Shown here piece by piece: positions 1-27,915 of a stretch of 64,000 nucleotides of DNA. Where the stretch lies: positions 85,393 to 149,392 of the forward strand of contig CAKQSV010000001.1 of assembly GCA_934273635.1 (NCBI GenBank), written 5' to 3'. Every line of letters begins with the position of its first letter. Positions within the stretch are counted from its first letter, which is position 1. This stretch comes from an uncultured Alphaproteobacteria bacterium (GTDB taxonomy: Bacteria; Pseudomonadota; Alphaproteobacteria; RF32; CAG-239). The notes beneath the pieces are model-generated. The model had not been told where the DNA came from. It did not search any database and saw nothing but the letters and a program-made list of their open reading frames with translations. The translations under genes and the position numbers were made by a program.

Positions 1-846
1 ACACGCTCGTTTGACCGCCGCGTGGTTAAGATTGACGGGCAAAAAATCACCTCGCAATCCGACCTTGGCAAATATATCTCGGCGATATGGCTGACCCCGC
101 AGATGGATAGGATGTTTCGGGGCGGCTCGCAACCTCGGCGCAGTTTTCTTGACCGTTTGGTTTATGCTTTTGATATTGAGCATGCAAAGCGAACGGCCAA
201 TTTTGAACATTTGTACCGCGAGTGGTTCCAGTTGATTAAGAGCGGACGTTCCGACGGGCATTGGCTGTCCTCGCTGGAAGAGAATATGGCCTCGGTCGGC
301 GTGGCGATTGCCGCGGCGCGGCGGGAGCTGATTGCGCGCCTCAACACCTTTATTTTGCACGAACCGGACGATGTGTTCCCTAATGTGGAGCTGTCGTTGG
401 AGGGCACCATTGAGCAAATGCTTGACAGTAAGCCGGCGATTGATGTGGAAGATTATTACATCGGGTTGCTGCAAAAACAGCGCAAAAATGTGTTGTACAG
501 CGAATATGTTGACGGCATCAACCGCACAGACTTTAAGGTTTTGTATAAGAAAAAGCGGATGCCGGCGGAGCTCTGCTCGACCGGCGAGCAGAAATCGCTG
601 TTGGTGGGAATTATTATGGCGCAAACCAAGTGCCAAACTTTGGATAAAGGTTTTGCGCCGGTTTTGTTGCTTGACGAGGTTGCCGCCCATTTGGATGACG
701 CCAAGCGCGAAGCCTTGCTCTCTAAAATCAGAGAACTTAACGTGCAGGCGTGGATTACGGCCACCGACCCGACCTTGTTTGCCTCTATGCGGGGATTTGC
801 CCAATTTTTAGAGGTTAAAAACAATACGGTTTGCCGCAATTATTAA
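1..846 (+). CDS. recF: DNA replication/repair protein RecF, C-terminal portion (5' end lies outside the window)
   Basis: The reading frame is open from position 1. The translation shows the RecF C-terminal signature (STGEQKSLLVGIIMAQ...LLLDEVAAHLD). Confidence 0.8.
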   Translation, partial: TRSFDRRVVKIDGQKITSQSDLGKYISAIWLTPQMDRMFRGGSQPRRSFLDRLVYAFDIEHAKRTANFEHLYREWFQLIKSGRSDGHWLSSLEENMASVGVAIAAARRELIARLNTFILHEPDDVFPNVELSLEGTIEQMLDSKPAIDVEDYYIGLLQKQRKNVLYSEYVDGINRTDFKVLYKKKRMPAELCSTGEQKSLLVGIIMAQTKCQTLDKGFAPVLLLDEVAAHLDDAKREALLSKIRELNVQAWITATDPTLFASMRGFAQFLEVKNNTVCRNY

Positions 847-892
847 CTCAAAATTGACACATTATTGTTATTGTTGTATCATCACATAATTA

Positions 893-1324
893 ATGACAAA
901 GGCAAAAGCAATGGAAAATCAATATTACACTTTGGTTGAAAAGCAGGATTTTTTTGAGATTATTGAGAACAAATTCGGCGAATTGGCCATTTTTATCGAC
1001 AGCCGCGAGGGTGCGCCGGTTAATCCGGTTTTGGAATTTGACGGCAAAAAAACCGCGGTTTTGAAAAGAGACGGTCGCCTTTCGGTGGTTTTGGACGGCA
1101 TTGATGAAGAAACCCGCGCGCCGTTAGCTGAAGCCGAATTTGTGCTGATTGTGGAATTGCAGGGCAAAATGGTGGAAAGAACTTACGGTGTGCCGGTTGA
1201 GAACGTTGAAGACGTGGTCATTGAAGGCAAAAAGACCCGCGCTGACGAGTTTATTAGAGCCAAAACCCGCGAAGAAGTTATTAAAAGTTTCGGCGCGGTT
1301 AAAGTTTGGCACAGCGGAAATTAA
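893..1324 (+). CDS. hypothetical protein (143 aa)
   Basis: Intact ORF between recF and the PTS EIIA gene. No recognisable motif, and no Walker A, so it is not HprK. Confidence 0.45.
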   Translation: MTKAKAMENQYYTLVEKQDFFEIIENKFGELAIFIDSREGAPVNPVLEFDGKKTAVLKRDGRLSVVLDGIDEETRAPLAEAEFVLIVELQGKMVERTYGVPVENVEDVVIEGKKTRADEFIRAKTREEVIKSFGAVKVWHSGN

Positions 1325-1345
1325 TATGGCAAAAGAGGACTGATT

Positions 1346-1744
1346 ATGATTGGTTTAGTTTTGGTAACGCACGGTAATTTGGCACAGGAATTTATTGCCG
1401 CCATGCAGCATGTGGTCGGCAAGCAAGAACAGGTTGAGGCGGTTTGTATCGGACCTGAGGACGATATGGAAATCCGTCGTTCTGAGATTTTGGAAAAAGC
1501 CAAAAAAGTCAACAGCGGCGACGGCACTATTATTTTGACCGATATGTTCGGCGGGACGCCGTCTAACTTGGCTTTGTCGTTAATGGAAACCGCCAATGTC
1601 GAGATTATTGCCGGTATTAATCTGCCGATGCTGATTAAGCTGTGTTCTCTGCGCAAAGACAAATCTATGAAAGAGGCTGTCAACGGCGCGCAAGATGCCG
1701 GCAAAAAATATATTACCGTCGCGTCACAACTTTTGGGATTATAA
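1346..1744 (+). CDS. PTS EIIA component, mannose/fructose family (PTS-Ntr type)
   Basis: N-terminus LVLVTHGNLAQEF matches EIIA-Man with the phospho-His. Size is 132 aa and it sits directly upstream of HPr. Confidence 0.8.
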   Translation: MIGLVLVTHGNLAQEFIAAMQHVVGKQEQVEAVCIGPEDDMEIRRSEILEKAKKVNSGDGTIILTDMFGGTPSNLALSLMETANVEIIAGINLPMLIKLCSLRKDKSMKEAVNGAQDAGKKYITVASQLLGL

Positions 1745-1746
1745 CA

Positions 1747-2025
1747 ATGAGTGAGAATAATATTTGCGCCGAGCTGACAATTCAAAACCGTAAAGGTTTA
1801 CACGCGCGCGCCGCCGCCGCTTTTGTGAAAGCGATTGAAAATTTGGATGCCGAAGTTACGGTTGAACGTATCGGACAAGAGGTTAGCGGCTGTTCAATTA
1901 TGGGCTTGATGATGTTGGCCGCCGCCAAAGGCACAACCATCAAAGTAACCTGCTCCGGCAAACAAGCGCAAGAGGCTATGGACGCACTCAGCACTCTTAT
2001 TAATAATAAATTCGGTGAAGAATAA
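1747..2025 (+). CDS. ptsH: phosphocarrier protein HPr
   Basis: GLHARAA (His15) and GCSIMGLM (Ser46) motifs. The ATG at 1747 is 2 nt after the EIIA stop. Confidence 0.85.
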   Translation: MSENNICAELTIQNRKGLHARAAAAFVKAIENLDAEVTVERIGQEVSGCSIMGLMMLAAAKGTTIKVTCSGKQAQEAMDALSTLINNKFGEE

Positions 2026-2030
2026 GCGGC

Positions 2031-2963
2031 ATGGTAACCTGCAAAGCGCCCCGCAACAAAACAATTCAATTATCGGAGGCTGAAATCAAGGCTTTAACCG
2101 CTCAGGCGTTGAGGCTTAATCATCGCACGCCGATAGAGGAACTTTGCGGTCATATTATTTGGCAAGACACTTTTCAGGTTTTGGATTATCTGCCCAAAGA
2201 CAGTATTGACCTGATGATTGTCGATCCGCCGTACAACCTCACAAAAAACTTTGGACACTCCACGTTTAAGGAAATGGGGTTGACTGACTATAAAAAGTGG
2301 TTGGATAAGTGGCTGAAGAAGACTATTCCGCTGCTGAAAGCCAATGCTTCGGTTTATATTTGCGCTGATTGGCGAACATCTATTGCAATTCCGGAAGTGG
2401 CAGGCAAATATCTGCTGTTGCAAAACCGCATTTCTTGGGAACGGGAAAAAGGTCGCGGCGCGCTGAACAACTGGAAAAACTGTTTGGAAGATATATGGTT
2501 TTTCAGCCGCTCTAAGGAATATACCTTTAACATTGACGACGTGAAAATTCAACGCAAGGTGATTGCGCCTTATCGTGACGAAAGCGGCAAGCCTAAAGAC
2601 TGGGAACAATCCGGCGACGGGCGCACGCGTTTTACTTATCCGTCTAATATTTGGACAGACATTTCTATTCCGTTTTGGTCAATGCCCGAGAACACCAATC
2701 ATCCGACGCAAAAACCCGAAAAACTGATTGCCAAGCTGATTTTGGCCTCCAGTAACAAGGGCGATGTGGTGTTTGACCCGTTTGTCGGCTCAGGCACAAC
2801 AGCGGTGACCGCCAAAAAGCTCGGACGCAGGTTTGTGGGCATTGAGAAAGAAAAAGAATATGTGGCGTTGGCGCTTAAGCGGTTGCTAATGGCTGATGAC
2901 AACGCTGAAATTCAAGGATATGAAAACGGCATTTTCAAAGCGCGCAACGGCGCATATTCTTAA
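2031..2963 (+). CDS. ccrM: N6-adenine DNA methyltransferase, CcrM/M.HinfI (beta-class, DPPY) family; lacks the CcrM C-terminal domain
   Basis: DLMIVDPPYNL motif, and HPTQKPEKLI...VVFDPFVGSGTT...GRRFVGIEKEKEY is colinear with CcrM. Length is 310 aa versus about 358 for CcrM. Starts 6 nt after the ptsH stop. Confidence 0.75.
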   Translation: MVTCKAPRNKTIQLSEAEIKALTAQALRLNHRTPIEELCGHIIWQDTFQVLDYLPKDSIDLMIVDPPYNLTKNFGHSTFKEMGLTDYKKWLDKWLKKTIPLLKANASVYICADWRTSIAIPEVAGKYLLLQNRISWEREKGRGALNNWKNCLEDIWFFSRSKEYTFNIDDVKIQRKVIAPYRDESGKPKDWEQSGDGRTRFTYPSNIWTDISIPFWSMPENTNHPTQKPEKLIAKLILASSNKGDVVFDPFVGSGTTAVTAKKLGRRFVGIEKEKEYVALALKRLLMADDNAEIQGYENGIFKARNGAYS

Positions 2964-3048
2964 GTTTTATAACTCTTGGAACAACGGTTTTTATCATTAT
3001 CTTTCTGTTCGTGACTAGCGATAATTTAACAAACAGGAGGATTTTTTG

Positions 3049-3204
3049 ATGAAAAACAACACATCAAGCAAATCGGCTAAATCTAATGAATCTTCAAAAA
3101 AGAGCGCCTCTCAGCCCGAAGTTGAGATTGAGGTGGACGAATATGACTTTGAACCGAGCAGCTCTTGCGGCTGCGGTTGTAACAGCAATAAGATTAAATA
3201 TTAA
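3049..3204 (+). CDS. small Ser/Lys-rich peptide (51 aa) with a Cys-rich C-terminus (SSSCGCGCNSNKIKY)
   Basis: AGGAGG sits 8 nt upstream of the ATG. It is paralogous to the following small ORF. Not in the ORF track because it is under 60 aa. Confidence 0.35.
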   Translation: MKNNTSSKSAKSNESSKKSASQPEVEIEVDEYDFEPSSSCGCGCNSNKIKY

Positions 3205-3220
3205 TTTTTAGGAGATTATA

Positions 3221-3316
3221 ATGATGACATGTAATAGCAGAAACACCAAATCAGCCTCATCTCAAAACTCAAAAGAATCGGAAATGAGCAAATCTTCATC
3301 CAAAGAAAGCAAATAG
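3221..3316 (+). CDS. small Ser/Lys-rich peptide (31 aa), paralogue of the preceding peptide
   Basis: AGGAG sits 6 nt upstream of the ATG. Shares a TSSKSAKSNESSKKSAS-like composition with its neighbour. Followed by a terminator. Confidence 0.3.
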   Translation: MMTCNSRNTKSASSQNSKESEMSKSSSKESK

Positions 3317-3338
3317 TTTTTGAGTAAGTGCTGACAAG

Positions 3339-3380
3339 TCACCTTTATGTTCTTGAGGAGAGCATAGAGGTGATTTTTTA
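3339..3380 (+). terminator. rho-independent terminator
   Basis: Stem tcacctttatg / catagaggtga (contains one G-U pair) followed by TTTTTT. Confidence 0.5.
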
Positions 3381-3440
3381 TTAGACTATTTACAGAATCA
3401 AGATTATATTGTCGATGTTATATCAGATAAGGATAATAAA

Positions 3441-4055
3441 ATGCGGATATTTGCTTTTTTGACAATGATGTTAGGTTGGGCGGTTTCGGCTCAGGCCGCT
3501 AATTATAACGCCGAGAAGGTTAAACAGATTGAAAACTACCTGAACAGCGTGAAGACGCTTAAGGCCGAGTTTGTGCAAACGGCCAGCAACGGCAACACCG
3601 CCGAGGGGACGTTATGGGTGGAAAAACCCAACAAAATCCGCATGGAATATAAAGAACCGACCAATGTTTTGATTGTGGGCAACGGCGATTATATTGTTTA
3701 TAATGACAAAGATTTGGAGCAGGTCACCAATATTGACTATGAGGATATTCCGGCCAGTCTGATTTTGGCAAACAATATTAAAATAGACGGCAAGCAAATT
3801 AAGGTCAGCAACTATTATGAAGACGCCGGCTCAACCGTGGTGACGTTGAGATACCCCGAAAAGCCCGAAATCGCGCCGATTACCCTCACCTTTACCAACA
3901 GTCCGTTTGCCTTGCGCCAGTGGTCGATTGTTGACCCGCAGAGCGTCGAGGTGGTGGTGTCGCTGTATAATACCGAGGCAGACACACCGCTGAATCAAGA
4001 TTTGTTCCGCTTCAAAAAAGCCAGGTCGCCGCTTAAGTACAAAGGCAAAAAATAA
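3441..4055 (+). CDS. lolA: outer-membrane lipoprotein carrier protein LolA
   Basis: Signal peptide MRIFAFLTMMLGWAVSAQA. The mature sequence and its ~200 aa size match LolA. Confidence 0.8.
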   Translation: MRIFAFLTMMLGWAVSAQAANYNAEKVKQIENYLNSVKTLKAEFVQTASNGNTAEGTLWVEKPNKIRMEYKEPTNVLIVGNGDYIVYNDKDLEQVTNIDYEDIPASLILANNIKIDGKQIKVSNYYEDAGSTVVTLRYPEKPEIAPITLTFTNSPFALRQWSIVDPQSVEVVVSLYNTEADTPLNQDLFRFKKARSPLKYKGKK

Positions 4056-4060
4056 GCAAA

Positions 4061-4687
4061 TCAGAACAGCAGGCGATAGCCACCCTCTTCGGCGCTGACG
4101 ATTTGCGCGCCCGCGGTCTCCTGCTCAACCTTTTTGCGCAAGCGATAAATATGGGTCTCAATGGTATGGGTGGTCACGTCGCCGCTGTATTCCCACACGT
4201 TTTGCAACAGCTCGTTTTTAGGCACCGCCTTGCCGCGCGATTTGTAAAGATATTGGATAATACTCACTTCACGCTCGGTGAGCTTGGCGGTTTTGCCGGT
4301 GGCGGTGTTGAGAATATCTTTATCGACCGGATGAAGCTCATATTCGCCAAAGTGCAAAAAACCATCCGCCGAGTTTTCAAACACATTTATTCCCGACTTG
4401 ATTTGATTGAGCAAATGAGACAGGCGCAGAGGCTTAAACACAAACATATCCAGTTTGTCCGAGGTGGTCTCATCACTATCTGACGGCTCCAAAATCAACG
4501 CCGGCACCTTAACGTGATTGATACGAAATTCAGATAAAAACTCTTTGCCGTCCAATAACGCAATGTCAAACACCGTTTGGTTATCGTCCCAAGTATAAAC
4601 CTTATAGTCTGGCAAGTTTTGCTCAATTTGGCTGACCAGGTCTTCCTGAAACGGACGATTGGCTGACAAAAATAAAATGTTCGGCAT
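4061..4687 (-). CDS. OmpR-family winged-helix transcriptional regulator with an atypical receiver-like N-terminus
   Basis: C-terminus LTEREVSIIQYL...TIETHIYRLRKK matches Trans_reg_C. The N-terminal domain lacks a clean acidic pocket. ATG at 4687 is preceded by AAGGAG. Lies 13 nt downstream of the porin gene. Confidence 0.65.
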   Translation of the reverse strand: MPNILFLSANRPFQEDLVSQIEQNLPDYKVYTWDDNQTVFDIALLDGKEFLSEFRINHVKVPALILEPSDSDETTSDKLDMFVFKPLRLSHLLNQIKSGINVFENSADGFLHFGEYELHPVDKDILNTATGKTAKLTEREVSIIQYLYKSRGKAVPKNELLQNVWEYSGDVTTHTIETHIYRLRKKVEQETAGAQIVSAEEGGYRLLF

Positions 4688-4699
4688 AAGCAAATCTCC

Positions 4700-5818
4700 T
4701 TAAAACCCGAGGCTGAAACCGGTTATCGCAGCATAGCCTTTGTTGGAATCTTCAGGCGTCTGACCTTTGAACTCGGCGCGAGCCCCCGCCAAATAAAGCG
4801 AAAGGTTGCGGTTGTATTGATAAGCGCCTGACAACAGCCAAATTTTGTCTTTGTTATCCGACTGCGCGGACTTGCTCTCAAAATAAGACAAAGCGGTTTT
4901 AAATGGTCCGATTTCATACCCGACGCCAACATCCCATGCCTCGCCCTCGCGGTAGCCGTCAAACCAATCGGCAAGGCGCGGATTGAGGCTATGCTTGGTC
5001 ACAGGATAATCGCCACCGTCAACATAGGTTTTGCGCCAACTGCCGCCGAGCGTCCAACCGGCGCGATACAGGCTCAAACCGGCGCTGAAATCTTTGTCAT
5101 CTTGATTGAAAATGCCATAACCGAGCGAGCTTACCAGTTCGGCAAAGCCTAAATCCGCGGTGTAATATGCGGCGGCAACATAACCATCATCAGCGGCATA
5201 GCGCGCGCGTTTGTTCACCAGACCGGTGCGATTGTAGGTGTCGGGAATATAGCTAAAACCCAAAGTCAGGTTGTGATATTCGGGAGTGATGTAACTGATT
5301 TTTGCCGCGGTGCCGTCGGTGTTTATTGAGGTGCTGTTTAGGGTTTGATAGGCAGTTTGACGCTTGGTTTTCACCCAGTTGGGATTGGCGATAAAGTTGA
5401 CAATATCGCTGTCGTTCAGCCCCAACTTTCCGGCAGACGGCGCTCCGACGTGAAACTGCGCGGCGGCGTTATAAGTTTCGCCAAACATTACCCGCCCCAA
5501 GGGATTGTCAAAAATACCATAGACCTCGTGCCCCCAAAGACCATTACTATAATTATATTGGCGCTTGTTCACCCCGACCATAATATCGGCAAACAGACCT
5601 AGGGAATAGTCGTCGTTAAAGTTTTTTTCGGCACTGAAATCAGCCTCAAAGGTATTGACAAAGAACTGGCGTTTGTCTTTGTGTTTGTCTCGGTGAGAGG
5701 GAAACGCATAACCGTAAAAGGAGCTCCACTCGCCGCTGAGGTTATATTCGGTATCGGACGCAAAAGCGAGGTTTGGCAGTATCAGACCCAATATGAACAG
5801 ATATTTTATTTTTTGCAA
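4700..5818 (-). CDS. outer-membrane porin (beta-barrel, C-terminal Phe)
   Basis: Ends ...ITGFSLGF and is rich in aromatic, Gly and Asn residues as beta-barrels are. The likely start is the TTG at 5816-5818, with GGAGG 6 nt upstream, giving signal peptide MQKIKYLFILGLILPNLAFA. The ORF-track start at 5881 would add a basic tail that is probably not translated. Confidence 0.7.
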   Translation of the reverse strand: MQKIKYLFILGLILPNLAFASDTEYNLSGEWSSFYGYAFPSHRDKHKDKRQFFVNTFEADFSAEKNFNDDYSLGLFADIMVGVNKRQYNYSNGLWGHEVYGIFDNPLGRVMFGETYNAAAQFHVGAPSAGKLGLNDSDIVNFIANPNWVKTKRQTAYQTLNSTSINTDGTAAKISYITPEYHNLTLGFSYIPDTYNRTGLVNKRARYAADDGYVAAAYYTADLGFAELVSSLGYGIFNQDDKDFSAGLSLYRAGWTLGGSWRKTYVDGGDYPVTKHSLNPRLADWFDGYREGEAWDVGVGYEIGPFKTALSYFESKSAQSDNKDKIWLLSGAYQYNRNLSLYLAGARAEFKGQTPEDSNKGYAAITGFSLGF

Positions 5819-5929
5819 CTTCTGCCTCCGTTTTGTTTTTTTCTCTCGCTCGTTATGACGGTTTCCCTGTCTGTTCGTCACTGCGAGTTTGGTGGCAAAC
5901 GAAGCAGTCCAGATTTAATAAGGATTCCT

Positions 5930-6066
5930 TGGTTTGACTGGATTGCTTCGGTGGCAAGCCACCTCGCAATGACGAGGGAGGGACGCCGACTGGATTGCCA
6001 CGACCGCAAGCGGTCTCGCAATGACGGTTTGGGTAACGCGCCCTATCGTCTTCGCAATGATGAGAA
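5930..6066. repeat. tandem REP-like palindromic units
   Basis: Two units, gactggattgc-[stem-AA-stem]-tcgcaatgacg, with stems GGTGGC/GCCACC versus GACCGC/GCGGTC (compensatory changes), plus a partial third copy, cgtcttcgcaatgatgag. Confidence 0.6.
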
Positions 6067-6353
6067 CATTATAATTATCACTTGAGGATAGTCAAGGGAT
6101 TATGTTTATCAGGGACTCGGCTGACAAGCTTATATGCAAAAATTAGAGAAAAATTTACTATTTTAGGAGTATAAAAATATTGTTTGTAGGTGTTTTCCAA
6201 CTGTGAATTTTTTGTTACAGGAATTTTTCTGTTGGAAAATCAATGTTTTATCTCATTTTTGGACTATCAGATTTATCTGGAAAAAAACTCCAAAATTAGG
6301 TATTCTAAAAGAGTAGATGAAGTTAATTTATAACATAGACAAGGAGAAAGACT

Positions 6354-6704
6354 ATGAAGTTCTTTAAGAAAAATATTTGGACAATCTGTTCATGGGTTGC
6401 CGTTTTTGCATTGGTAGCCGCAGATGCTTTTGCTGATCAGGGTTCTTCTTTGATGACCACCGCTCAGACCAAAGCTTCTAACGTGTTCCAATCAGTTAAA
6501 ACCATCACCTTTATTTTGGGTGGTTTCGGTTTAATCGGTATCGCATATCAGGCTATTATCGGTAAAGTTAAATGGTCTTGGTTTGCGGGTTTGGCCGTTG
6601 GTTTGGCTCTGTTGGCCGCTGCAGGTGCTATCGTTGAATACGCTACCGGCGCTTCTGTCAACGACAATTTTGCTGACTCGTTCTCTACCGGTGCTTCGTA
6701 CTAA
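6354..6704 (+). CDS. VirB2/TrbC-like type IV secretion pilin paralogue 1 (116 aa)
   Basis: Signal peptide MKFFKKNIWTICSWVAVFALVAADAFA, then two hydrophobic helices (ITFILGGFGLIGIAYQAIIGKVKWSWFAGLAVGLALLAAAGAIV). Size and architecture match VirB2 (compare Agrobacterium ILGPFGQSLAVLGIVAIGISWMFGRAS). Confidence 0.6.
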   Translation: MKFFKKNIWTICSWVAVFALVAADAFADQGSSLMTTAQTKASNVFQSVKTITFILGGFGLIGIAYQAIIGKVKWSWFAGLAVGLALLAAAGAIVEYATGASVNDNFADSFSTGASY

Positions 6705-6748
6705 TAGAGTTTGTTAAATTAGATAAAAAAAGGAAAGGAAGGTTTGTT

Positions 6749-7162
6749 ATGAAAAATTTGATTGAAAATAATTCACAACACCTTCCTTTTGCCTTTTTGA
6801 TTAAGGGAGCAAGGAAGATGTTGTGCGTAAATTTTAAGAAACTGATTGTCACGGCAGTGCTGATGTTTGTGTGTTCTTCAATTTTATTTGCAACAGATTC
6901 TTATGCACTGTTTGAAGATTTATCCAAACACGGCGGTAAAATTTTTACCGGTATGCGTGAGATTATTTATGCGGTTTCCGGTTTTGGTATTATCGCTATC
7001 GTCATCGGGGCGATTTTTGGTAATATTAACTGGAAATGGCTGACCGCTATTATTATCGGTCTGTTTGTGATTGCGGGTACGGCGACAATCATCAACTATA
7101 TGGTTGAGAGCGATGTTGTGACCCAAGATATGATTACCGACAGCCTGAAGTTTGGCGAATAG
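6749..7162 (+). CDS. VirB2/TrbC-like pilin paralogue 2 (137 aa)
   Basis: Core IIYAVSGFGIIAIVIGAIFGNINWKWLTAIIIGLFVIAG aligns with paralogue 1. There is an alternative in-frame start at 6818 (MLCVNFKK...) preceded by GGGAG. Confidence 0.55.
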   Translation: MKNLIENNSQHLPFAFLIKGARKMLCVNFKKLIVTAVLMFVCSSILFATDSYALFEDLSKHGGKIFTGMREIIYAVSGFGIIAIVIGAIFGNINWKWLTAIIIGLFVIAGTATIINYMVESDVVTQDMITDSLKFGE

Positions 7163-7220
7163 GTTAAAAAAGAAAAATTATTTTGTACTGCAAAAATCTT
7201 AAGGATTAAGGAGACGTGCC

Positions 7221-9704
7221 ATGATGAATGTTAAAAATATTGTAAAAGGTGTTTCATTCCTGTTATGCTTGGGATTTTTGGCATGTGCAACCAACGCCAT
7301 GGCGAAGAGCAGCTTTGATGACTATGAAACTCAGTACGAAGATGAGCAAGCGACCTATGGTAATTGCGAAAACGCCAAGAAATATATTGATGAAGGTAGA
7401 AAGTGTGACTCAAGCAGTAAGAAGGCAACTCTTGAAAAAGCTTGTCAGAAATATCAATCAGTCAAAGCAGAATATAAAACATGTATGAGCGGTGGCAAAT
7501 CAGAATCTAAAGCGGCTTATGACGCATTGACGACGGCAAATACTTGTGAATCTACTGCCATAAAAAACATTAAAGAGGCTTTTGCCAGCTGTAAAGCGGC
7601 TATAAAAGCATATAAAAAGGCAGACAAAGCAAATGACAAGAAGAAGGCAGCAGGTGAAGCTAATAAAGAGGCTCAAAAAGCCATGACTACTGCGAAAGCG
7701 GCTTATTATAGGGCTATAGCTGACTGTGAACAAGGGGAGACGTTTGGCGACTGCTCTAAGGCAAATGATTTATATAAAGATTATCAGAAAAAAGCCAAAG
7801 CCGCTGGTAAAACCGCTAAGGCTGCAACAAAAGCAGATACTGCAGCTGCCGCCCAAAATAAGGCTTTTCAGTCTGCTGCAAATGATTCCTGCGGCATTGG
7901 GAGACGGTATAATGCTGACACTGGCGCTTGTGAAGACATTAACCTTGACCTGAGTAGTGAAGACCCTGATATTGCAGGGGTTAAGGCGGACTCAGACGCG
8001 GCCAAAGCTGCCGCAACCGGTAGCTCATCCTTAACCTGTAGTAATGTCAGCAAAAAAGGTGAGGCTAACGGCACATTTGCAATCTTTGACTATCTTGCCT
8101 GCCGTATCACCTTGGTGGTGGCTGATGTTCGCGCTATCGTATACATCTTGGCCGGCTTTGGTATGATTGCCTTTGCTTATGGCGCAATCATCGGCAAAAT
8201 CAACTTTAAGCAGTTGGCAAACATTTTTATCGGATTGTTTATCTTGTCAATGACAACCGGATTAATTGAGGCTATTGTCTTTAATGACGGCACATCTCGC
8301 TTGACTTATCACAACTATTTACCGGACGGCAATCATGGGCAATATAGCTCTGTGAGCGCAGATTGTAGCAGTGACGCAAGCTTGTGTCCGGATGTTGAAT
8401 TGAATGGTATGAAAGCTGACGCAGACAATAGCTCTTGGAGCTTGAGCGACCTTAAAAATACTATTAAATCAGCCAAGAAAGCTGTTAAGACTGCGTCAAA
8501 TACCGTTAAGACCGTTAAAAACACAGTCGAAACTACGGTGAACGCTGCAAAGAACATCGGCAACGCCATCAAAAACGGTGGGGATATTACCGATGTGGTC
8601 AGCAACATTGCCGCCAATGTCAGCAATGTGGTTGGTACCGCGAATATGGCGGCTAACCAGTTGGCAAACAACTATGCCGACCTTGCTAATGATATTCGCG
8701 ATGCTCAGTCGACTGAGGAGCAACTTAAATATCGTGAAGAAGTCGAAAAACGCTATAACCTCTTGAAAGGTAAGTGCGATACCGGCAACTGTAGTGAGAA
8801 CGAAAAAGCCTCTTTGGCTAAAATGGCTGAGATGGTCGATGAAAACAAAACCAAAGCCGACAAATGGGTTGAGAACGACGGCAAAGGTGGCGGTTCGACT
8901 ATCTTGAGTGGTCTTGGTAAAGCAGCAAACATAGCAAGTTCAGCAAACAAAGTCACCTCAAACGTCGCTCAGGCACAAAATGACGGTTCGGCTTTGGCTG
9001 GTGGAGCATTAGGTGATGTTTTAGGCGTAGCTTTCGCCGCAGGAGAGGCTTACACCAGTGGCTCGGATGCTTATGATAAGGCTAAAAGCGATGGTTCTTT
9101 AGACTTCCGCAGCGGTCAGACCAAGAGCGCTGATGACGCCAGACATGCTCAACAAGCCGCTGAAGACGCTTGTATTAAAAAAGGCGGTAAGTTGGCTAAC
9201 GGCAAGTGCATGAGTGATAAAGGTGTTGAAATTGATATTACCACCGGCGCCCGCACTAAGACAGCGACTGACGATAAGGGTAACAAGACGACGGCTACTT
9301 CAACAACAGATAAAGCCACCGGTACAAAAACAACAACGGCTGTCGTAACCGATAAAGACGGTAAGAAGGTATCCGAGACCGTCACGGTTGAAAACAAAGA
9401 CGGCACCAAGACCGTTACGGTTAAAGAAAACGGTAAGAACAAGTCTGTAAGCTATGGCAAAGACGGCAAACTCACCTCCGTTGACGGGCAAAAGGCTGCC
9501 GACCAAAAAGCCACCTGCACCCAGCAAGGTAAAGTTTGGGACGACAAGTTGGGTTGCCGCACGCACGAAGCAGTTTGCCAAAGCGAGGGTAAAACCTATG
9601 ACAGCAATTCTAAAAAGTGCGTAGCAAAGAAAGAGGGAAAGAAAGCCGATACAAAGAAGGGAGCCGCTAAAAGTTCGGCAAAGTCAACAACCACTAAAAA
9701 ATAG
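7221..9704 (+). CDS. 827-aa secreted/membrane chimeric protein: signal peptide, Cys/Lys/Ala-rich domain, VirB2-like pilin core, then Thr/Lys/Gly/Asp-rich low-complexity tail
   Basis: GGAG sits 7 nt upstream of the ATG. Signal peptide MMNVKNIVKGVSFLLCLGFLACATNAMA. Residues ~295-350 (IVYILAGFGMIAFAYGAIIGKINFKQLANIFIGLFILSMTTGLIEAIVF) are paralogous to the two upstream pilins. The N-terminal domain is Cys-rich, with 14 Cys in residues 1-285 (two lie in the signal peptide), and the C-terminal region has a further 10 Cys. Confidence 0.6.
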   Translation: MMNVKNIVKGVSFLLCLGFLACATNAMAKSSFDDYETQYEDEQATYGNCENAKKYIDEGRKCDSSSKKATLEKACQKYQSVKAEYKTCMSGGKSESKAAYDALTTANTCESTAIKNIKEAFASCKAAIKAYKKADKANDKKKAAGEANKEAQKAMTTAKAAYYRAIADCEQGETFGDCSKANDLYKDYQKKAKAAGKTAKAATKADTAAAAQNKAFQSAANDSCGIGRRYNADTGACEDINLDLSSEDPDIAGVKADSDAAKAAATGSSSLTCSNVSKKGEANGTFAIFDYLACRITLVVADVRAIVYILAGFGMIAFAYGAIIGKINFKQLANIFIGLFILSMTTGLIEAIVFNDGTSRLTYHNYLPDGNHGQYSSVSADCSSDASLCPDVELNGMKADADNSSWSLSDLKNTIKSAKKAVKTASNTVKTVKNTVETTVNAAKNIGNAIKNGGDITDVVSNIAANVSNVVGTANMAANQLANNYADLANDIRDAQSTEEQLKYREEVEKRYNLLKGKCDTGNCSENEKASLAKMAEMVDENKTKADKWVENDGKGGGSTILSGLGKAANIASSANKVTSNVAQAQNDGSALAGGALGDVLGVAFAAGEAYTSGSDAYDKAKSDGSLDFRSGQTKSADDARHAQQAAEDACIKKGGKLANGKCMSDKGVEIDITTGARTKTATDDKGNKTTATSTTDKATGTKTTTAVVTDKDGKKVSETVTVENKDGTKTVTVKENGKNKSVSYGKDGKLTSVDGQKAADQKATCTQQGKVWDDKLGCRTHEAVCQSEGKTYDSNSKKCVAKKEGKKADTKKGAAKSSAKSTTTKK

Positions 9705-9723
9705 CTTCTTGTTCTATGGCTCA

Positions 9724-9762
9724 AAAACACCCCGTGTTGACTCTCTCCACGGGGTGTTTTTT
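9724..9762 (+). terminator. rho-independent terminator of the pilin-like operon
   Basis: Stem acaccccgtg / cacggggtgt followed by TTTTTT. Confidence 0.75.
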
Positions 9763-9935
9763 AATGACCAGAAACTCAGAATTGTCATTGCGATGACGTT
9801 AGGGGAAGGGAACGTGCCATTGCCGCTCTAATAATTTAGAGAGGGTATATAAAGACTTCTTCCCTAAATTTTTAGGGAAGACGGATTTCTTAAGAGGACA
9901 GGAGCTAACAGCGAACTGTACTCTTGTTGAAATCC

Positions 9936-10007
9936 TGATGAGTTTAAAGTTATGTTCGGAGTTTTAATTAAAAGGCTTTCCTTTACTATAAACTCACCTC
10001 CGACAGC
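9936..10007. repeat. MITE-like ~68-bp element, copy 1
   Basis: gagtttaaagttatgttcggagttttaattaa...ctttactataaactcacctcc. The 11-bp inverted ends GAGTTTAWAGT/ACTATAAACTC are present in both copies; the TIR is perfect in copy 2 and has a T/A mismatch here. Confidence 0.5.
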
Positions 10008-10186
10008 TAACGCTGCCACCTCCTCTCTAAATATTTAGCGAGGAGGTTTAAACTCACCTCAACCAATTCCGACTAAAAATTTAGAGAGGAAGGATATAGA
10101 AACCTTACCCTGCCTCTTTGAATTTTCAGAGAGGCAAGATTGCTCAGTAAATGCAACAGCATTTGCACTTAGCAATCTGGTGAGTT

Positions 10187-10253
10187 TATAGTTATGCTTG
10201 GAGTTTTAATTAAGTGTCTTTCCCTTACTATAAACTCATCTGGATTTCTAAAA
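10187..10253. repeat. MITE-like ~68-bp element, copy 2
   Basis: ctggtgagtttatagttatgcttggagttttaattaagtgtctttcccttactataaactcatctgg. About 85% identical to copy 1. Confidence 0.5.
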
Positions 10254-10527
10254 AAATACAATTCGTTTCACTCTTGTATTTTAAGAAATCCTGTCTTCCC
10301 TAAATATTTAAGGAAGACATTACCCCCCTCTAATAATTTAGAGAGGGAATAAGTAGCCACTTTACACTTGGATCGCCACGGACGTTGCCGTCCCCGCGAT
10401 GACGTTCGGGACAGAAGTTCTAAAAAAATAATATCAAAAAAAATCATCCTTTGTAAAAAAATTTATTTTGCGATTTTGGCAAAAAATGCTAATATAAGTA
10501 TTATATTATTGTTCTATGGAGGCTGCA

Positions 10528-12636: not shown

Positions 12637-13689
12637 ATGACAGAAGAGCAAAGCGAACTTTGGGAGCATTTCCTGAAGCAGGTTAAAATTCTTAAATTAA
12701 AATCTATTCGCGCCTGGCACCGTTTTGACAAACAGACCGGAACCACCCGTTTTTTGAAAAAGATGGCTTTGGCTGCGGCTCTGAAAACCATTACGATGAT
12801 TATGCCCAATGCGCAGATTAGCCTGCACGCGCAAACCGTGCACAAAAAAACACCAAGCAAAACTTTGATTGCCAGCGCCTCAATCCCGAGCGCTGAAGCG
12901 TCGTATGAGGCTTTTCAGGAGTACAGCCGCGAACGGATGCCCTTGCGTCAGGCCGACTTTGCCCGCGATTTGTATGAGACCCTGCGCGAAAACGTGGAGG
13001 AAGTGCAGGACGGCGCCAAGCACGGTCGCAAGACCAAAACCCTCAAAGACCTGTTCGGCAACGATATTGACCCCAAATATTATTGCGCTATTGCCGGTTT
13101 GCGCTCGTTGGAGCAAACCATTGACAAAAAGGGGTATTATGAATATGAGTTTTTGCTCAACTGTATTCAAAATCCACACGCTTGTCTGAGTGTTATCAGC
13201 AGTTTGGAAAAAAACTTCGGCACCGGTGCCAAAACCGCCAATATTCGCAACAAACTGCGCGACGAGCTGAAGAAAAATTCAAGCTCAGTGTGCATTGCGG
13301 TAGTCAACAGCCGTCAAAACACCAGTAGCGGCAAGCATTTTGTGTTTGTGTTGCCCAACAAGGTGGTGGTTGATTCGCTGATTCATGAAACCGACACGCT
13401 CAAAGGACGCGTGGTGTCGTTTAATGTTGATAAAATCGCCAAATCCGACGACTATTTTACCGGCACCCGCAACACCGGCTATTTGTTCAACATTACCGAC
13501 CTGTCGGAAAATGATTTGATGTTGATGTTTTATAACGCGTTCACCAAGCAAAAAATGCAAAAAACAAAAACCGCCTCAAAATCTGCGGAAGTTTCGGCAG
13601 TGACGGAAAAGCCCAAAACCACTCGTCGCAAAACGGCGGTTAAGCCCGAGGGCTTGTGGCGGGAGGTCAGCTCTAAAAGCAGAGGCTAA
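12637..13689 (+). CDS. hypothetical protein (350 aa) with a Lys/Thr-rich C-terminus
   Basis: Intact ORF. An internal segment MALAAALKTITMIMPNAQISLHA looks like a signal peptide. No recognisable domain. Confidence 0.45.
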   Translation: MTEEQSELWEHFLKQVKILKLKSIRAWHRFDKQTGTTRFLKKMALAAALKTITMIMPNAQISLHAQTVHKKTPSKTLIASASIPSAEASYEAFQEYSRERMPLRQADFARDLYETLRENVEEVQDGAKHGRKTKTLKDLFGNDIDPKYYCAIAGLRSLEQTIDKKGYYEYEFLLNCIQNPHACLSVISSLEKNFGTGAKTANIRNKLRDELKKNSSSVCIAVVNSRQNTSSGKHFVFVLPNKVVVDSLIHETDTLKGRVVSFNVDKIAKSDDYFTGTRNTGYLFNITDLSENDLMLMFYNAFTKQKMQKTKTASKSAEVSAVTEKPKTTRRKTAVKPEGLWREVSSKSRG

Positions 13690-24666: not shown

Positions 24667-26477
24667 TTTGACAAGTCTTTCATCCACCATGTGTGTGGTA
24701 GAAATCCGGTTTTGACTTTGGTTTGCGGTTGGGCGAACTTATCCCAATAAGCCACGCGTTGGGTGGGCGAATACCAGTGCGGAATAAGGTAGCAACCGTG
24801 CAACAACACCCTGTCCAGAGCTTTAACGGCGGCTTCATAGTCATCTTTGGTTTGGGCTGTCACCACCGCCTTAATCAGAGCGTCAACCACCGGATTTTTA
24901 ACACCGATAATATTATAGCTGCCTTTTTGGTCTCCGGCTTGCGAGCCCCACATTTCAAATTGCTCGTTACCAGGCATACGACTAACACCAAAGCCGGCTA
25001 TCGCCACGTCAAAATCAAAATTATCCAGACGGTTTTTGAACACGCTCGGCTCAATATTGCGAAACTTGAGCTTGACGCCGATTTTTTTGAGGTTGGCAAT
25101 AAACGGCAACATAACCCGCGTGAAAGATGAGCCATTAGCAGAGTTACCCAAAACCTCAAATTCAAGCGGTTCTCCGGTTTGGAGGTTGGTCATTTTGCCG
25201 TTCACAAAATCATAGCCCGCGGCTTGTAGTAATTTAACCGCTTGGCGGAGATTTTGTCGGGTTGCGGACGGGGTGGGATGTTGGGGTTGGGTTGGCGGCG
25301 TGGTGAAAATATCACTATCCAACTGCGCACGATAGCGATTGAGCAAGGCTAACTCTTTTCCTTGCGGCAAGCCAGTCGCCTCCATGCCGGTATTGGGGAA
25401 AAAGCTGTTTATGCGGCGGTATTGCCCATAAAACAGGTTTTCGTTCGCCCACTCAAAATTAAATGCCAACGCAATTGCCTGACGCACACGGCGGTCTTTA
25501 AACTTGTCTTTGCGCAGGTTAAAGGCAAAATTTTGCAGCGGCGCGGCATTGTTGTGCAGAATATCCGCCTTGATAACTTTTCCGCTTTTAATTATATCGT
25601 TGTCGTAGCCGGTCGCCCAGATTTTGGCGATGTATTCCTCACGCGTGTCGATATTGCCGGCAAACAACGCCTGCAAAGTGACCGTGGTGTCTTGATAGTA
25701 GTCATAACGCAACTCATCAAAATTATACATCCCCTTGCGGCTCGGCAAGTCTTTCGCCCAATAATCGGGGTTGCGCTTGAAAACAATGTATTGATTGACC
25801 GAAAATTTATCAAGGTAATAAGGTCCGCTCCCGAGGGGCGGCGTTAAAGTCGGCGTGGCAAAATCTTTGCCCTGCCAATCGGCGGCGGAATAAATGCTCA
25901 TTTGCGCCAAAATCAACGGCAATTCACGGTTTTTGCTGTCTTTTTTGAAGTAAAAACGCACATGGCGGTCATTAAGTTTTTCCACTCGCTCCACATCGGC
26001 ATAATAAATTTTATACAGCGGCTGACCTTTTTCAACCAACGCGTTATAAGAAAAAATCACATCATCGGCCAAAACCGGCGTGCCGTCACGAAATTTGGCG
26101 CGTTCATCCAAAATAAAACCGACATAGCTTTTGTCCGCCGGATATTCAAAGGCTTTGGCCAACAACGGATAAATCGTGGAAATATCATCAACCGCCGTCA
26201 CGCCCAACGTATCTAATGTCAGCGACACGGTATAGCCGCCGTCGGCTATGCCCTTAAAGATAAAGGGGTTAAAATTGTCAAAAGTGCCATAGGTCGGGGC
26301 AACCATCCGTCCCCCTTTGGGCGCACAGGGATTGACATAAGAAAAATGCGAAAAATCAGCCGGATATTCGGCTCGGCCATAAAGCGCCAAATATGGCAGT
26401 GTTTTGGCGTGCGCCGCCGTGCAAAACAGCAGACACCCCACAAGCGCCGCCAATCTATTTGTTATAGTTGTCGGCAT
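24663..26477 (-). CDS. yejA: ABC transporter periplasmic substrate-binding protein, family 5 (YejA-like)
   Basis: Signal peptide MPTTITNRLAALVGCLLFCTAAHA. Has the ~600-aa SBP_bac_5 architecture. Confidence 0.65.
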   Translation of the reverse strand: MPTTITNRLAALVGCLLFCTAAHAKTLPYLALYGRAEYPADFSHFSYVNPCAPKGGRMVAPTYGTFDNFNPFIFKGIADGGYTVSLTLDTLGVTAVDDISTIYPLLAKAFEYPADKSYVGFILDERAKFRDGTPVLADDVIFSYNALVEKGQPLYKIYYADVERVEKLNDRHVRFYFKKDSKNRELPLILAQMSIYSAADWQGKDFATPTLTPPLGSGPYYLDKFSVNQYIVFKRNPDYWAKDLPSRKGMYNFDELRYDYYQDTTVTLQALFAGNIDTREEYIAKIWATGYDNDIIKSGKVIKADILHNNAAPLQNFAFNLRKDKFKDRRVRQAIALAFNFEWANENLFYGQYRRINSFFPNTGMEATGLPQGKELALLNRYRAQLDSDIFTTPPTQPQHPTPSATRQNLRQAVKLLQAAGYDFVNGKMTNLQTGEPLEFEVLGNSANGSSFTRVMLPFIANLKKIGVKLKFRNIEPSVFKNRLDNFDFDVAIAGFGVSRMPGNEQFEMWGSQAGDQKGSYNIIGVKNPVVDALIKAVVTAQTKDDYEAAVKALDRVLLHGCYLIPHWYSPTQRVAYWDKFAQPQTKVKTGFLPHTWWMKDLSK

Positions 26478-27915
26478 TTGTCCACCCGCCAAACGGATAA
26501 GAATAGTCGTCATCATTGCCCACTTTAGGCTCAGGCATACCTTCCTCCGGCGCGAAAGTCGGCTCTTTGCTAACGCTGATGTCTCGCTGTTTGGCGTTTT
26601 CCCACTCCTGACGGATGGCGTTGAGTTTTTCTCCGGAAGAGAAAAAGCCCTGCTCCAACTCCGGCGTAACCGCAGACACTGTCGGCGCTGCCGGTTCGGG
26701 CTCGGATTGAAGAGCAGAAACCGCGTCTAAGGACGGCGCGGCTGTTTCTTCCGCCTCGGTATGGTGATTGATAATAATTTCAGGCATAGCGACCGGCTCA
26801 GGCTCGGTGACTGCCGCCGGCTCAAACGTAAACTTATTCTCAACAGCAACGGTTGGTTCAGGTTCAGCGGGCGCGGGCGTTTCAAAATGAGGTTCAGCCT
26901 CAGCGGACTGCGGCGCGCCAAAGCTCTTGGCAAATGCCAAAGACAAAGGATCTGCCTCGGTCGCGGAGGACGGGCTCGTTTCCGGCTCGGGCTCGGACTT
27001 TTTGCGGCGGGTGAAGGTGTTTATAAACAGGCGGCGCGCATTTTCAGACAAGCGGTTTTCAGGCTCAGAAGTTGGCGTTGAAATTTGATAAGATTGTGGT
27101 TTAGCCGCCACAACCGGCTCAGGCTGTGGCTCAGGCTCGGTCATTTGCGCGCGAGCCAATGTCAAATCGCGGTTTTGACGGATAGAATCGGCAGGAGAGG
27201 CCAACAGAGAAAAGACTTTTCCCATAACGCCCGTTTCTAAAACATTTAGAAACAAGCGCTCGCGGTCGTGTTTTTCAAGCGAGCCTATCAAGGTTTGGTA
27301 ACGAGAGCAAAACTCAAGTATTGTTCCGCCCAACACCACATCACGCAGGGCTTTTTGCAATAATCTGTCAGGCAGATTGGGCTGCGTTTGGCTCAATTCA
27401 ATAATCACCTTGCCGAAAGCCCATTTTCCACCATTTTTAACCTTAACCCACAGGTGATCAATTTGTTCCGACGAGGACAAACCGCCGCGGGCAATAATTT
27501 CTGACAACAGCTCGTTCATATCTGCCACAAAAACATCAAACTTGCTTAATATGATATTGTCTTGAAGATTTTGGCGTGCCTCAAGCATTACTTTAGCGAT
27601 GACATCGGAATATTCCTGATTTTTTTTCATCTGTTTGAACAAAGAATACATATTTTTGTTCAAGACCGACGCGCTAAGATATTGATAAACATAGCCGAAA
27701 ATCGCCCAAAGGATAAAAACCGGCAACACGACCACCGCCGTGGTGACGGCAAACGCATTAGCGCCATCGCCCCCCAAATTGCCCAAAGCATAAAAAAACC
27801 AAATCACACTGGCAAAAACCGAAAAGAAAAATGCTGCTGACAACACGGTCGTACTCCTTAAATCTTCTGACTTATTGCCGCTTATTCTATTCCAAATCTG
27901 AATTTTTGCAAACAA
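26455..27915 (-). CDS. membrane protein (2 N-terminal TM helices) with a C-terminal Pro/Glu-rich (PEPEP) low-complexity region
   Basis: Contains VLSAAFFFSVFASVIWFFYAL and FAVTTAVVVLPVFILWAIFGYVY, plus multiple PEPEP/PEPQPEP tracts. Confidence 0.5.
   Translation of the reverse strand: MFAKIQIWNRISGNKSEDLRSTTVLSAAFFFSVFASVIWFFYALGNLGGDGANAFAVTTAVVVLPVFILWAIFGYVYQYLSASVLNKNMYSLFKQMKKNQEYSDVIAKVMLEARQNLQDNIILSKFDVFVADMNELLSEIIARGGLSSSEQIDHLWVKVKNGGKWAFGKVIIELSQTQPNLPDRLLQKALRDVVLGGTILEFCSRYQTLIGSLEKHDRERLFLNVLETGVMGKVFSLLASPADSIRQNRDLTLARAQMTEPEPQPEPVVAAKPQSYQISTPTSEPENRLSENARRLFINTFTRRKKSEPEPETSPSSATEADPLSLAFAKSFGAPQSAEAEPHFETPAPAEPEPTVAVENKFTFEPAAVTEPEPVAMPEIIINHHTEAEETAAPSLDAVSALQSEPEPAAPTVSAVTPELEQGFFSSGEKLNAIRQEWENAKQRDISVSKEPTFAPEEGMPEPKVGNDDDYSYPFGGWTNADNYNK

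Follow-up and report, generated by a model that had tools for sequence, protein, structure and literature searches.

The window, that is, the whole 64-kb stretch of DNA analysed, contained a same-strand array of three open reading frames (ORF). The first gene, pilA (6354..6704, + strand), encoded a short TrbC/VirB2 pilin of 116 aa with a signal peptide and a hairpin, and the second, pilB (6749..7162, +), encoded a second TrbC/VirB2 pilin of 137 aa with a long leader. Both scored above the gathering score of Pfam PF04956 (pilA: E 4.7e-10, 40 bits, cutoff 27.9; pilB: E 5.3e-8), and a RefSeq-annotated Microvirga TrbC/VirB2 pilin matched pilA at 1.9e-17 and pilB at 2.4e-15. The third gene, pilC (7221..9704, +), encoded an extended third pilin paralogue of 827 aa. 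Its ORF was uninterrupted from the ATG start and was preceded by the two Pfam-positive pilins, in agreement with the initial annotation.

An AGGAG-type ribosome-binding site lay ahead of each of pilA, pilB and pilC. The genes were separated by 44 and 58 nt, and no terminator was found in the pilA-pilB or pilB-pilC gaps. The operon ended in an intrinsic terminator (9723..9766, +), whose arms (9723-9736 and 9748-9761) were complementary at 14/14 positions around an 11-nt loop and were followed by a T-run. This perfect 14-bp inverted repeat bore out the strong terminator reported at the outset. No virB3, virB4 or other type IV secretion system (T4SS) gene was present among the window ORFs scanned, and the trio was detached from virB3/virB4.

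Hydropathy gave only three hydrophobic segments in pilC, at about residues 8-25, 301-318 and 340-346. The type I signal peptide (aa 1-28; 7221..7304, +) ended in A-M-A and was 100 % identical among close strains. Its A-x-A motif was kept across the family and C22 was not; a lipoprotein signal at C22 was ruled out because the cysteine was not conserved. The additional sequence comprised ~255 aa that followed the signal peptide and preceded the hairpin, and ~470 aa beyond the hairpin. There were 24 cysteines, 22 of them in the mature protein: 13 in residues 1-285 (two in the signal peptide), then C294, and 10 after the core. The earlier cysteine count was right for the signal peptide and for the region after the core, but the 14th cysteine it assigned to residues 1-285 was C294.

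Searches with whole pilC and with its N-, core and C-pieces against Pfam and NCBIfam returned only a sub-threshold TrbC match on the core. No recognisable adhesin domain was found in the extensions (Pfam, NCBIfam, PDB profile search, Foldseek); the PDB sequence-profile search gave coiled-coil noise only, and Foldseek of the full AF2 model against the PDB gave nothing below E 0.001. As directly implied by the sequence, the type I signal peptide would take the N-terminus of pilC across the inner membrane and the pilin hairpin would anchor it like any VirB2 propilin. The single signal peptide, the two TM helices with a Lys-rich loop of 5 residues, and the presence of cysteines in each extension likewise imply that both extensions lie on the same side, periplasmic or external.

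The pilin core and the pilC family

The VirB2/TrbC-type pilin core of pilC (aa 282-356; 8064..8288, +) was paralogous to the two upstream pilins, as had been claimed. BLASTP aligned residues 282-356 with pilB at 39 % identity over 75 aa without gaps (E 4e-10) and with pilA at E 6e-8, and hhalign aligned the C-core profile with the A+B profile at 99.8 % (E 5.7e-28, 74/75 columns). The helix-loop-helix proposed for the core was recovered in both AF2 runs (DSSP: helix 287-323, 5-residue loop, helix 329-353), but with pLDDT <50 for core and stalk. Like TrbC/VirB2 pilins, pilC had a signal peptide and then two hydrophobic helices with a short positively charged loop, although its 827 aa exceeded the small size of propilins (~70-150 aa). 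The hairpin retained the GFG/K-loop signature of the pilin family; the loop read GKINFKQ, with K326 and K330 invariant. The core was the best-conserved portion across the pilC family, and was 94-100 % identical among close strains.

Full-length pilC had no match to PF04956, and its core alone scored below the cutoff (E 0.051, 14.2 bits; cutoff 27.9). Direct PF04956 matches were obtained by 15 of 105 pilC-family representatives (best 6.6e-9), and a 530-aa pilC orthologue had a precomputed TrbC match. The RefSeq-annotated Microvirga pilin matched the window pilC at 2.8e-3 and proteins of clade C with E values as low as 3.7e-13. Taken with the core alignments, pilC is almost certainly an extended VirB2 paralogue. 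The sub-threshold Pfam score of the window core could speak for an artefact, either genes fused by a frameshift or an unrelated TM hairpin resembling a pilin. The probability of such an origin is negligible, given the profile-profile match over nearly every column, the many orthologues that matched Pfam TrbC directly, the purifying selection on the whole pilC gene, and the identical architecture in independent assemblies from different hosts.

There were 49 pilC homologues, all long and without annotation, and 32 pilC genome loci. Orthologues occurred in >30 uncultured gut and rumen Alphaproteobacteria, and near-identical intact copies were present in independent pig and other metagenomes. The early concern about a frameshift or assembly fusion fell away with these copies, and the large extensions stood as genuine and conserved. 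The usual gene order in orthologous loci was pilA-pilB-pilC-virB3-virB4…virB8-virB8-virB9, and pilA-pilB-pilC-virB3-virB4 recurred in ~25 species. The 96-aa gene of these loci was VirB3, and their VirB4 matched TIGR00929 at 4.5e-111, with a conservation of 76-99 %. pilC is the third orthologously conserved member of a VirB2/TrbC pilin triplet of a chromosomal VirB-type T4SS. A limited literature search turned up neither extended VirB2 pilins nor a pilC-linked T4SS, and pilins of the pilC type appear to be undescribed.

In the clade closest to the window the trio was likewise detached from virB3/virB4, and three VirB4 look-ups landed in clades other than that of the window. At the corresponding site, the relatives L047 and L048 had pilA-pilB-virB3-virB4 and lacked pilC, which is thus dispensable there. 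tblastn of pilC against plasmids gave no match. No polytopic VirB6-like protein was present between VirB4 and VirB8 in the operons of relatives. The downstream genes were considered as a Rickettsiales rvh-type set (virB6 ×4), but this was dropped because their products had only N-terminal signal or anchor segments. Downstream of VirB4, relatives also had a weak VirB5-like candidate (d1), and unknown secreted proteins encoded there evolved as fast as pilC.

The core tree gave three clean clades, with pilA in A, pilB in B and pilC in C, which indicates that the pilin triplication is old. Among the orthologues examined, pilC lengths ran from 209 to 1752 aa, and the family as a whole spanned 138 to 2138 aa (median 812); the C-extension exceeded 150 aa in 179 of 183 family members. 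A profile search with pilC returned 981 clusters (50 % identity), whose extensions were almost without known domains. In short pilC forms the core came directly after the signal peptide. The initial description of pilC as chimeric is misleading: it is an ancient orthologous pilin paralogue that gained extensions, and the short forms are of 209-270 aa.

The short ancestral forms would also suit a pro-protein, in which export is followed by cleavage of one or both extensions, leaving the core as an ordinary pilin, while the extensions are set free or serve solely as chaperone-like pro-domains. Processing at both ends is established for TrbC and VirB2 propilins, and RP4 TrbC has its C-terminus trimmed before it is cyclised, which counts in the same direction. 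Cleavage of this kind is nevertheless improbable for pilC. No peptidase-type site was kept at either extension boundary in the family alignment, the position aligned with the pilA/pilB cleavage site was not A-x-A, and the post-core region with C382 and C389 was strongly conserved right up to the hairpin. Moreover, two ordinary pilins are already encoded upstream, and balanced allelic cassettes of the kind described below are unexpected in pro-domains.

The post-core region and the variable N-domain

Conserved columns and models delimited a conserved post-core region (aa 357-653; 8289..9179, +), common to 94 of 190 family proteins. Its motifs were LxYxxYLPxGNH, an 'LCPD' motif with C382/C389, and an invariant DGKGGG(S/A)TIL. 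This stalk was Asn/Ala/Val-rich and all-helical; both AF2 models made it helical with low confidence, and an AF2 rerun of aa 270-640 with 49 sequences brought no gain (mean pLDDT 51). A β-rich C-terminal module followed (aa 654-802; 9180..9626, +), modelled by AF2 as a β-meander of short strands at 657-802 (pLDDT 80-90), bracketed by Cys hairpins and present in only 13 of 190 family proteins. The tail had been called low-complexity on account of a T/K/G/D-rich run. That run is present, but the tail was not a disordered low-complexity stretch, and no DNA tandem repeats were found in the pilC gene. The predicted fold of the tail is a helical stalk and then a confident β-meander with disulfide hairpins.

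A disulfide-closed β-hairpin mini-module, CGIGRRYNADTGAC (aa 224-237; 7890..7931, +), was recognised by its Cys motif and in the AF2 model, with further copies at aa 766-779 and 786-800; AF2 modelled these sites as β-hairpins. The motif C-x2-5-G-x1-4-[WYF]-x3-9-C occurred in 103 of 183 family proteins, compared with 18 of 183 shuffled controls.

The N-domain (aa 29-245) was helical and Cys/Lys/Ala-rich, and AF2 placed long helices at 94-170 and 175-224 (pLDDT ~80). Inside it lay a hypervariable allelic cassette (aa ~36-235; 7326..7925, +), delimited by nucleotide and aa identity and by dS. Against strain L039, nucleotide identity was 54-72 % in the cassette (600 bp) and 92-100 % across the remainder of the aligned locus, repeat-rich non-coding stretches apart. 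Among seven near-identical gut strains, aa identity was 48-80 % in the cassette, compared with 85-98 % elsewhere in pilC, and there were six cassette alleles. Cassette dS was 1.0-2.6 (saturated), and that of the rest of the gene was ~0.1-0.2 for the four closest strains. The Cys and Tyr scaffold positions were invariant across alleles. Among close strains the polymorphism lay in the N-domain and not in the tail, where the initial annotation had proposed to look for length polymorphism. In another clade the pilC core was 89-99 % identical and the extensions 56-78 %.

The dN/dS ratio was 0.1-0.3 throughout pilC, and thus below 1 in the cassette. As synonymous sites were also saturated, both a diversity-generating retroelement and simple positive selection were ruled out as the source of N-domain variation. 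No silent N-domain copies were found by tblastn in the 64-kb window. The cassette looks like an allelic segment that is exchanged by recombination while its cysteine scaffold stays conserved. Sharply delimited, far more diverged than its flanks and with a conserved scaffold, it fits the sequence pattern of antigenically variable surface proteins with allelic cassettes; the case for diversifying selection rests on allele depth and mosaicism and not on an excess of replacements. The initial annotation had offered three readings, namely a pilus-tip or adhesin fusion, a variable surface antigen, and a pseudo-pilin anchored by the pilin fold. The sharply bounded N-cassette lends real support to a variable surface antigen or adhesin.

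In the pseudo-pilin reading, the hairpin would dock to the T4SS while the extensions stay in the periplasm as a stalk, scaffold or assembly or regulatory factor, and are never surface-exposed. The sole membrane element of pilC is a hairpin of inner-membrane type, and the passage of large disulfide-bonded extensions through the outer-membrane core complex would be awkward. An oligomeric periplasmic coiled coil would be expected to give the low monomer confidence seen for the helical stalk, and the platform function of the VirB6-like protein lacking between VirB4 and VirB8 in relatives may have been reassigned. It is nonetheless difficult to account for a sharply bounded cassette, with six deeply diverged alleles among seven near-identical strains, in a protein confined to the periplasm. 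The range of pilC length among orthologues and its varying domain content also ill suit a fixed machine part, compared with the conserved VirB4. A membrane-anchored, wholly periplasmic pilC is accordingly considered rather unlikely, with more in its favour than cleavage of the extensions.

Possible role on the T4SS pilus

The best reading of these sequence features is that pilC may be a minor or tip pilin that presents a variable adhesin or antigen. The chance that it is displayed on the T4SS pilus is judged to be about even. As the hairpin was the best-conserved part and kept the GFG/K-loop signature, we infer that the pilus-assembly machinery would handle pilC as a pilin. It could then be built in small numbers into a fibre of pilA and/or pilB. 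The first layer at the tip would be its most plausible place, since the shaft has no room for ~730 additional residues on every subunit. The fibre would carry the helical stalk, the β/Cys-hairpin module and the helical N-domain, the last with many deeply diverged alleles that homologous recombination may exchange between strains that are otherwise almost identical. Such an allele pattern would be expected of an exposed adhesin or antigen on which host immunity, phage or target specificity exerts frequency-dependent selection.

A more specific version of display on the pilus is offered tentatively and is possible though doubtful. pilC would represent a new class of T4SS subunit, a minor pilin of VirB2 fold of which five copies form the tip layer. 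Its post-core helices would form an oligomeric stalk that presents a recombination-shuffled, disulfide-stapled recognition domain. The result would be a strain-specific, T4SS-borne device for adhesion or target selection in abundant gut commensal Alphaproteobacteria, possibly without a classical VirB6/VirB5 platform.

VirB2-type pilins are treated as uniformly tiny, and adhesion or target recognition is assigned to the unrelated VirB5, CagL and outer-membrane adhesins. The pilC family, which has neither a name nor a Pfam annotation, breaks the tiny-pilin picture: across its 981 clusters, the VirB2 hairpin carries from hundreds to thousands of additional extracytoplasmic residues. If pilC is on the pilus, it would give a direct handle on how a T4SS fibre presents variable ligands, account for the hypervariation between strains of common but uncultured Alphaproteobacteria of the gut and rumen, and provide a natural scaffold with which conjugative-type pili could display large domains. 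In metagenomes, the N-cassette could also be used as a marker for strain typing.

Comparison with known systems

The VirB2/TrbC/TrwL pilins (PF04956) share with pilC a homologous core, with a signal peptide, two hydrophobic helices and a short basic loop, and in orthologous loci pilC likewise takes the pilin position upstream of virB3-virB4. Their propilins are ~70-130 aa with at most short trimmed ends, whereas pilC has two large Cys-rich extensions, one of them allelically hypervariable. The nearest annotated T4SSs, on Microvirga and Erythrobacter plasmids, have a VirB4 35-38 % identical and a single short pilin.

In type IV pili and the type II secretion system (T2SS), CofB, TcpB and GspK join a pilin-fold anchor to big C-terminal domains, occur once per tip, prime assembly and bind targets. 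They share this design principle with pilC, but their fold and machinery are unrelated: they have a class III signal, an N-terminal α1 helix and a prepilin peptidase, and pilC has a type I signal peptide and a VirB2 hairpin.

In the established model, a VirB5 pentamer sits at the pilus tip (PMC12857230). A minor adhesive tip subunit that initiates the fibre, as VirB5, TraC and CagL are, is the role proposed here for pilC. There is no sequence relationship between them and pilC (no Pfam/NCBIfam match), and VirB5 lacks a VirB2-type hairpin. The extended VirB6 of the Rickettsiales rvh system is a core T4SS membrane component with big hydrophilic domains of unknown function (PMC12857230). It is, like pilC, an enlarged T4SS component of host-associated Alphaproteobacteria, but it is polytopic with five or more TM helices, compared with the two-helix pilin hairpin of pilC.

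Tandem pilin arrays are found in Bartonella Trw (multiple trwL/trwJ), among the virB2 paralogues of Anaplasmataceae and in a six-pilin cluster of Patescibacteria (PMC12857230), and tandem VirB2 paralogue arrays of host-associated bacteria have been proposed to build variant surface fibres (PMC12857230). Like pilA-pilB-pilC, these arrays place several sequence-diverged VirB2 paralogues side by side. All of their paralogues are short, with none reported to have large globular extensions, in contrast to pilC. The tandem arrays vary by the number of paralogues, and pilC varies by an allelic cassette inside one gene.

The third gene of the pilin trio

The gene pilC (7221-9704, + strand) was an intact ORF encoding 827 aa. 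It was the last of the trio, after pilA (6354-6704) and pilB (6749-7162), both on the same strand and both matching the Pfam TrbC/VirB2 family (PF04956) above the gathering score. The three genes had AGGAG ribosome-binding sites and were separated by 44 and then 58 nt; the terminator of the trio was a perfect 14-bp hairpin with a T-run (9723-9766). DNA tandem repeats were absent within pilC. Hydropathy identified three hydrophobic segments only: a signal peptide with A-M-A at its end, and two helices whose centres lie near aa 301-318 and 340-346. In this topology both disulfide-rich extensions lie outside the cytoplasm. The Cys-rich character described in the initial annotation was essentially borne out, with 13 cysteines in aa 1-285 plus C294, 10 after the core, and 22 in the mature protein.

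The core (aa 282-356) gave gap-free alignments with pilB (75 aa, 39 % identity, E 4e-10) and pilA (E 6e-8). Alone it fell below the Pfam threshold (E 0.051), which was made good by the wider family: a profile of 34 third-gene cores matched one built from 57 first- and second-gene cores (99.8 % probability, E 5.7e-28, 74/75 columns), PF04956 was matched directly by 15 of 105 pilC-family representatives, one 530-aa orthologue had a precomputed TrbC match, and a RefSeq-annotated TrbC/VirB2 pilin from a Microvirga plasmid matched third-gene proteins down to 3.7e-13. These pairwise and profile-profile matches upheld the proposed paralogy of the core with the two upstream pilins, and the identity of pilC as a VirB2-family paralogue is solid. 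Both AF2 runs modelled the core as helix, five-residue Lys-rich loop and helix (pLDDT < 50).

Mean pLDDT of the whole AF2 model (25 sequences) was 61.5. The N-domain ahead of the core was confidently predicted as a long helical hairpin (helices 94-170 and 175-224) with a Cys β-hairpin cap. The post-core region 390-653 was helical at low confidence, compatible with an oligomeric coiled coil. The supposed low-complexity tail was instead a confident meander of short β-strands with two further Cys hairpins (aa 657-802; pLDDT 80-90). No solved structure resembled the model in a PDB sequence-profile search or with Foldseek against the PDB.

Type IV secretion setting and family

A protein search found 49 homologues (512-1389 aa), none with a name or Pfam domain, and a scan with a single genome for each species found 32 loci, nearly all with titles naming uncultured Alphaproteobacteria, Rhodospirillales or 'Azospirillaceae' MAGs; sampled sources included roe deer and yak as well as other gut or rumen material, and one short contig was binned as Lactobacillus. 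About 25 of the 32 loci had the order pilA-pilB-pilC-virB3-virB4 followed by several uncharacterised secreted proteins. The 96-aa downstream gene was VirB3 (annotated VirB3 matches at 8e-11) and the 810-aa gene VirB4 (TIGR00929, 4.5e-111); longer contigs extended the operon with virB8, a 62-aa gene, a second virB8 and virB9/CagX. The pilC orthologues belong to a T4SS operon. Occurrence of the same gene in independent homologues and loci, in conserved order, excluded an artefact, and pilC was not the chimera initially described.

In the window clade (window, L001-L003 and L007) the trio was detached and adjoined an OmpR-like regulator, a porin and LolA. With dnaA-dnaN-recF a few kilobases away (window 1-6000 with longer contig L033), the trio adjoins the replication origin region of the chromosome. 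In L036, L037 and L045-L049, the opposite strand upstream carried a Tcp-like type IVb pilus cluster (T2SSE, T2SSF, PilO, secretin, TcpQ), always head-to-head with pilA where the trio adjoined virB3-virB4; porin and regulator occupied its position in the window clade. In L047 and L048 (9195-10011), virB3-virB4 came directly after pilA-pilB and the 130-nt pilB-virB3 gap contained no third pilin gene, so that pilC can be missing from the operon or sited elsewhere.

Between VirB4 and the duplicated VirB8, relatives L045 (12516-20888), L047 (12520-20097) and L049 (12450-19366) had 4-6 genes, one of 1206-1413 aa, with N-terminal signal or anchor segments as their only hydrophobic parts. These genes had no Pfam or NCBIfam match and evolved at the speed of the pilC extensions; no polytopic VirB6-like gene was seen in this interval.

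In a neighbour-joining tree, the 75-aa cores fell into three clean clades corresponding to gene position, and the triplication thus took place before these bacteria radiated. In the loci examined, proteins of clade C were 209 to 1752 aa long, all with a C-terminal extension; in many the core directly followed the signal peptide (aa about 22-98), like in a normal pilin, and in others 250-680 residues were inserted ahead of it. A family profile run against 1.84 billion cluster representatives returned 981 proteins at E ≤ 1e-3, 364 at E ≤ 1e-10 and 119 at E ≤ 1e-30. More than 150 residues followed the core in 179 of 183 core-containing proteins. Module distribution was nested: pilin core in 183/190 family proteins, post-core stalk in 94/190, N-domain in 28/190 and β-rich tail in 13/190. 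Known Pfam domains were almost absent from the extensions, and this large family has no annotation. The disulfide-closed β-hairpin motif C-x2-5-G-x1-4-[WYF]-x3-9-C occurred in 103/183 family proteins compared with 18/183 shuffled controls, and three times in the window protein. A DGKGGG(S/A)TIL motif in the stalk (8868-8897; aa 550-559) was kept in most closer family members, many with other N- and C-modules.

Hypervariable N-domain cassette

Among seven near-identical variants (the window protein and P0002-P0007), amino acid identity was 100 % in the signal peptide, 94-100 % in the core and 85-98 % in the rest of pilC, but 48-80 % in aa 36-235, with six distinct alleles of this cassette across the seven strains. 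Nucleotide identity to the pig-metagenome strain L039 was 93-100 % over 2235-5834 and 6026-7325, dropped to 54-72 % over the cassette (7326-7925), and returned through a transition (7926-8025; 88 %) to 89-100 % over 8026-9725. Nei-Gojobori estimates for the cassette were dS 1.0-2.6 and dN 0.23-0.43, against about 0.1-0.2 and 0.02-0.04, respectively, for the rest of pilC (four closest strains). With dN/dS of 0.1-0.3 everywhere, pilC is under purifying selection. Cys and Tyr scaffold positions within the cassette were invariant, which makes alignment error an unlikely source of the divergence. The N-domain is an allelic cassette subject to recombination. Its pattern is what is expected of alleles of old, deep divergence that homologous recombination, acting at the conserved flanks, has moved among strains; neither a recent burst of replacement changes nor a retroelement origin matched it. 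Silent N-domain copies were absent from the 64-kb window. In a second clade, the contrast between pilC core (89-99 % identity) and extensions (56-78 %) also held at species level, with VirB4 at 96-99 %, pilA at 89-100 % and the uncharacterised secreted proteins downstream of VirB4 at 54-76 %.

We infer that pilC is displayed on the pilus. Its hairpin would be handled as a pilin by the T4SS and built in at low copy, most plausibly at the tip of the pilA/pilB fibre, where the extensions would be exposed; cassette diversity would then reflect selection acting on that surface. The main rival, a hairpin-anchored periplasmic component never leaving the inner membrane, is in keeping with the relatives' operons, which lack a VirB6-like polytopic protein, but accounts poorly for the allelic cassette and for length variation this extreme. 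pilC might also be processed into an ordinary pilin, but no conserved cleavage site supports this. The hypervariable cassette provides a concrete lead that can be tested.

Neighbouring features and known systems

Downstream of the operon, a non-coding gap of ~750 bp (9760-10515), in which identity to L039 collapsed, was dense in short palindromic elements and looks REP- or MITE-like: it had TCTTCCCTAAAnnTTTAGGGAAGA-type hairpins at 9858, 10021 and 10294, copies of CTAATAATTTAGAGAGG, a 65-nt direct repeat (9935-9999/10177-10241; 86 %) and a large imperfect inverted repeat (9912-9998/10179-10265). Between the porin gene and pilA, a segment of ~100 bp (5926-6025) with two 39-nt direct repeats (GACTGGATTGC…CTCGCAATGACG) was missing in the otherwise 97-100 % identical L039; the related motif GCGATGACGTT recurred at 9790 and 10396. 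A 1272-aa ORF (37241-41059, + strand) with a Gly/Ala-rich hydrophobic patch around aa 590-670, no Pfam match and no signal peptide could encode a putative T4SS substrate. In L034, a 1304-aa uncharacterised protein directly adjoined the OmpR-like regulator next to the trio. ORFs 26455-27915 (-) and 12637-13689 (+) had no Pfam match.

Literature searches found nothing on extended VirB2 pilins. Passages of the review PMC12857230 describe tandem pilin arrays (Bartonella Trw, Anaplasmataceae, Patescibacteria) and, for Rickettsiales, extended VirB6 proteins, with no mention there of extended VirB2 pilins. The nearest annotated T4SSs, on Microvirga and Erythrobacter plasmids (VirB4 35-38 % identical), have a single short pilin and a standard VirB3-VirB11/VirD4 set beside a MobA/MobL relaxase.
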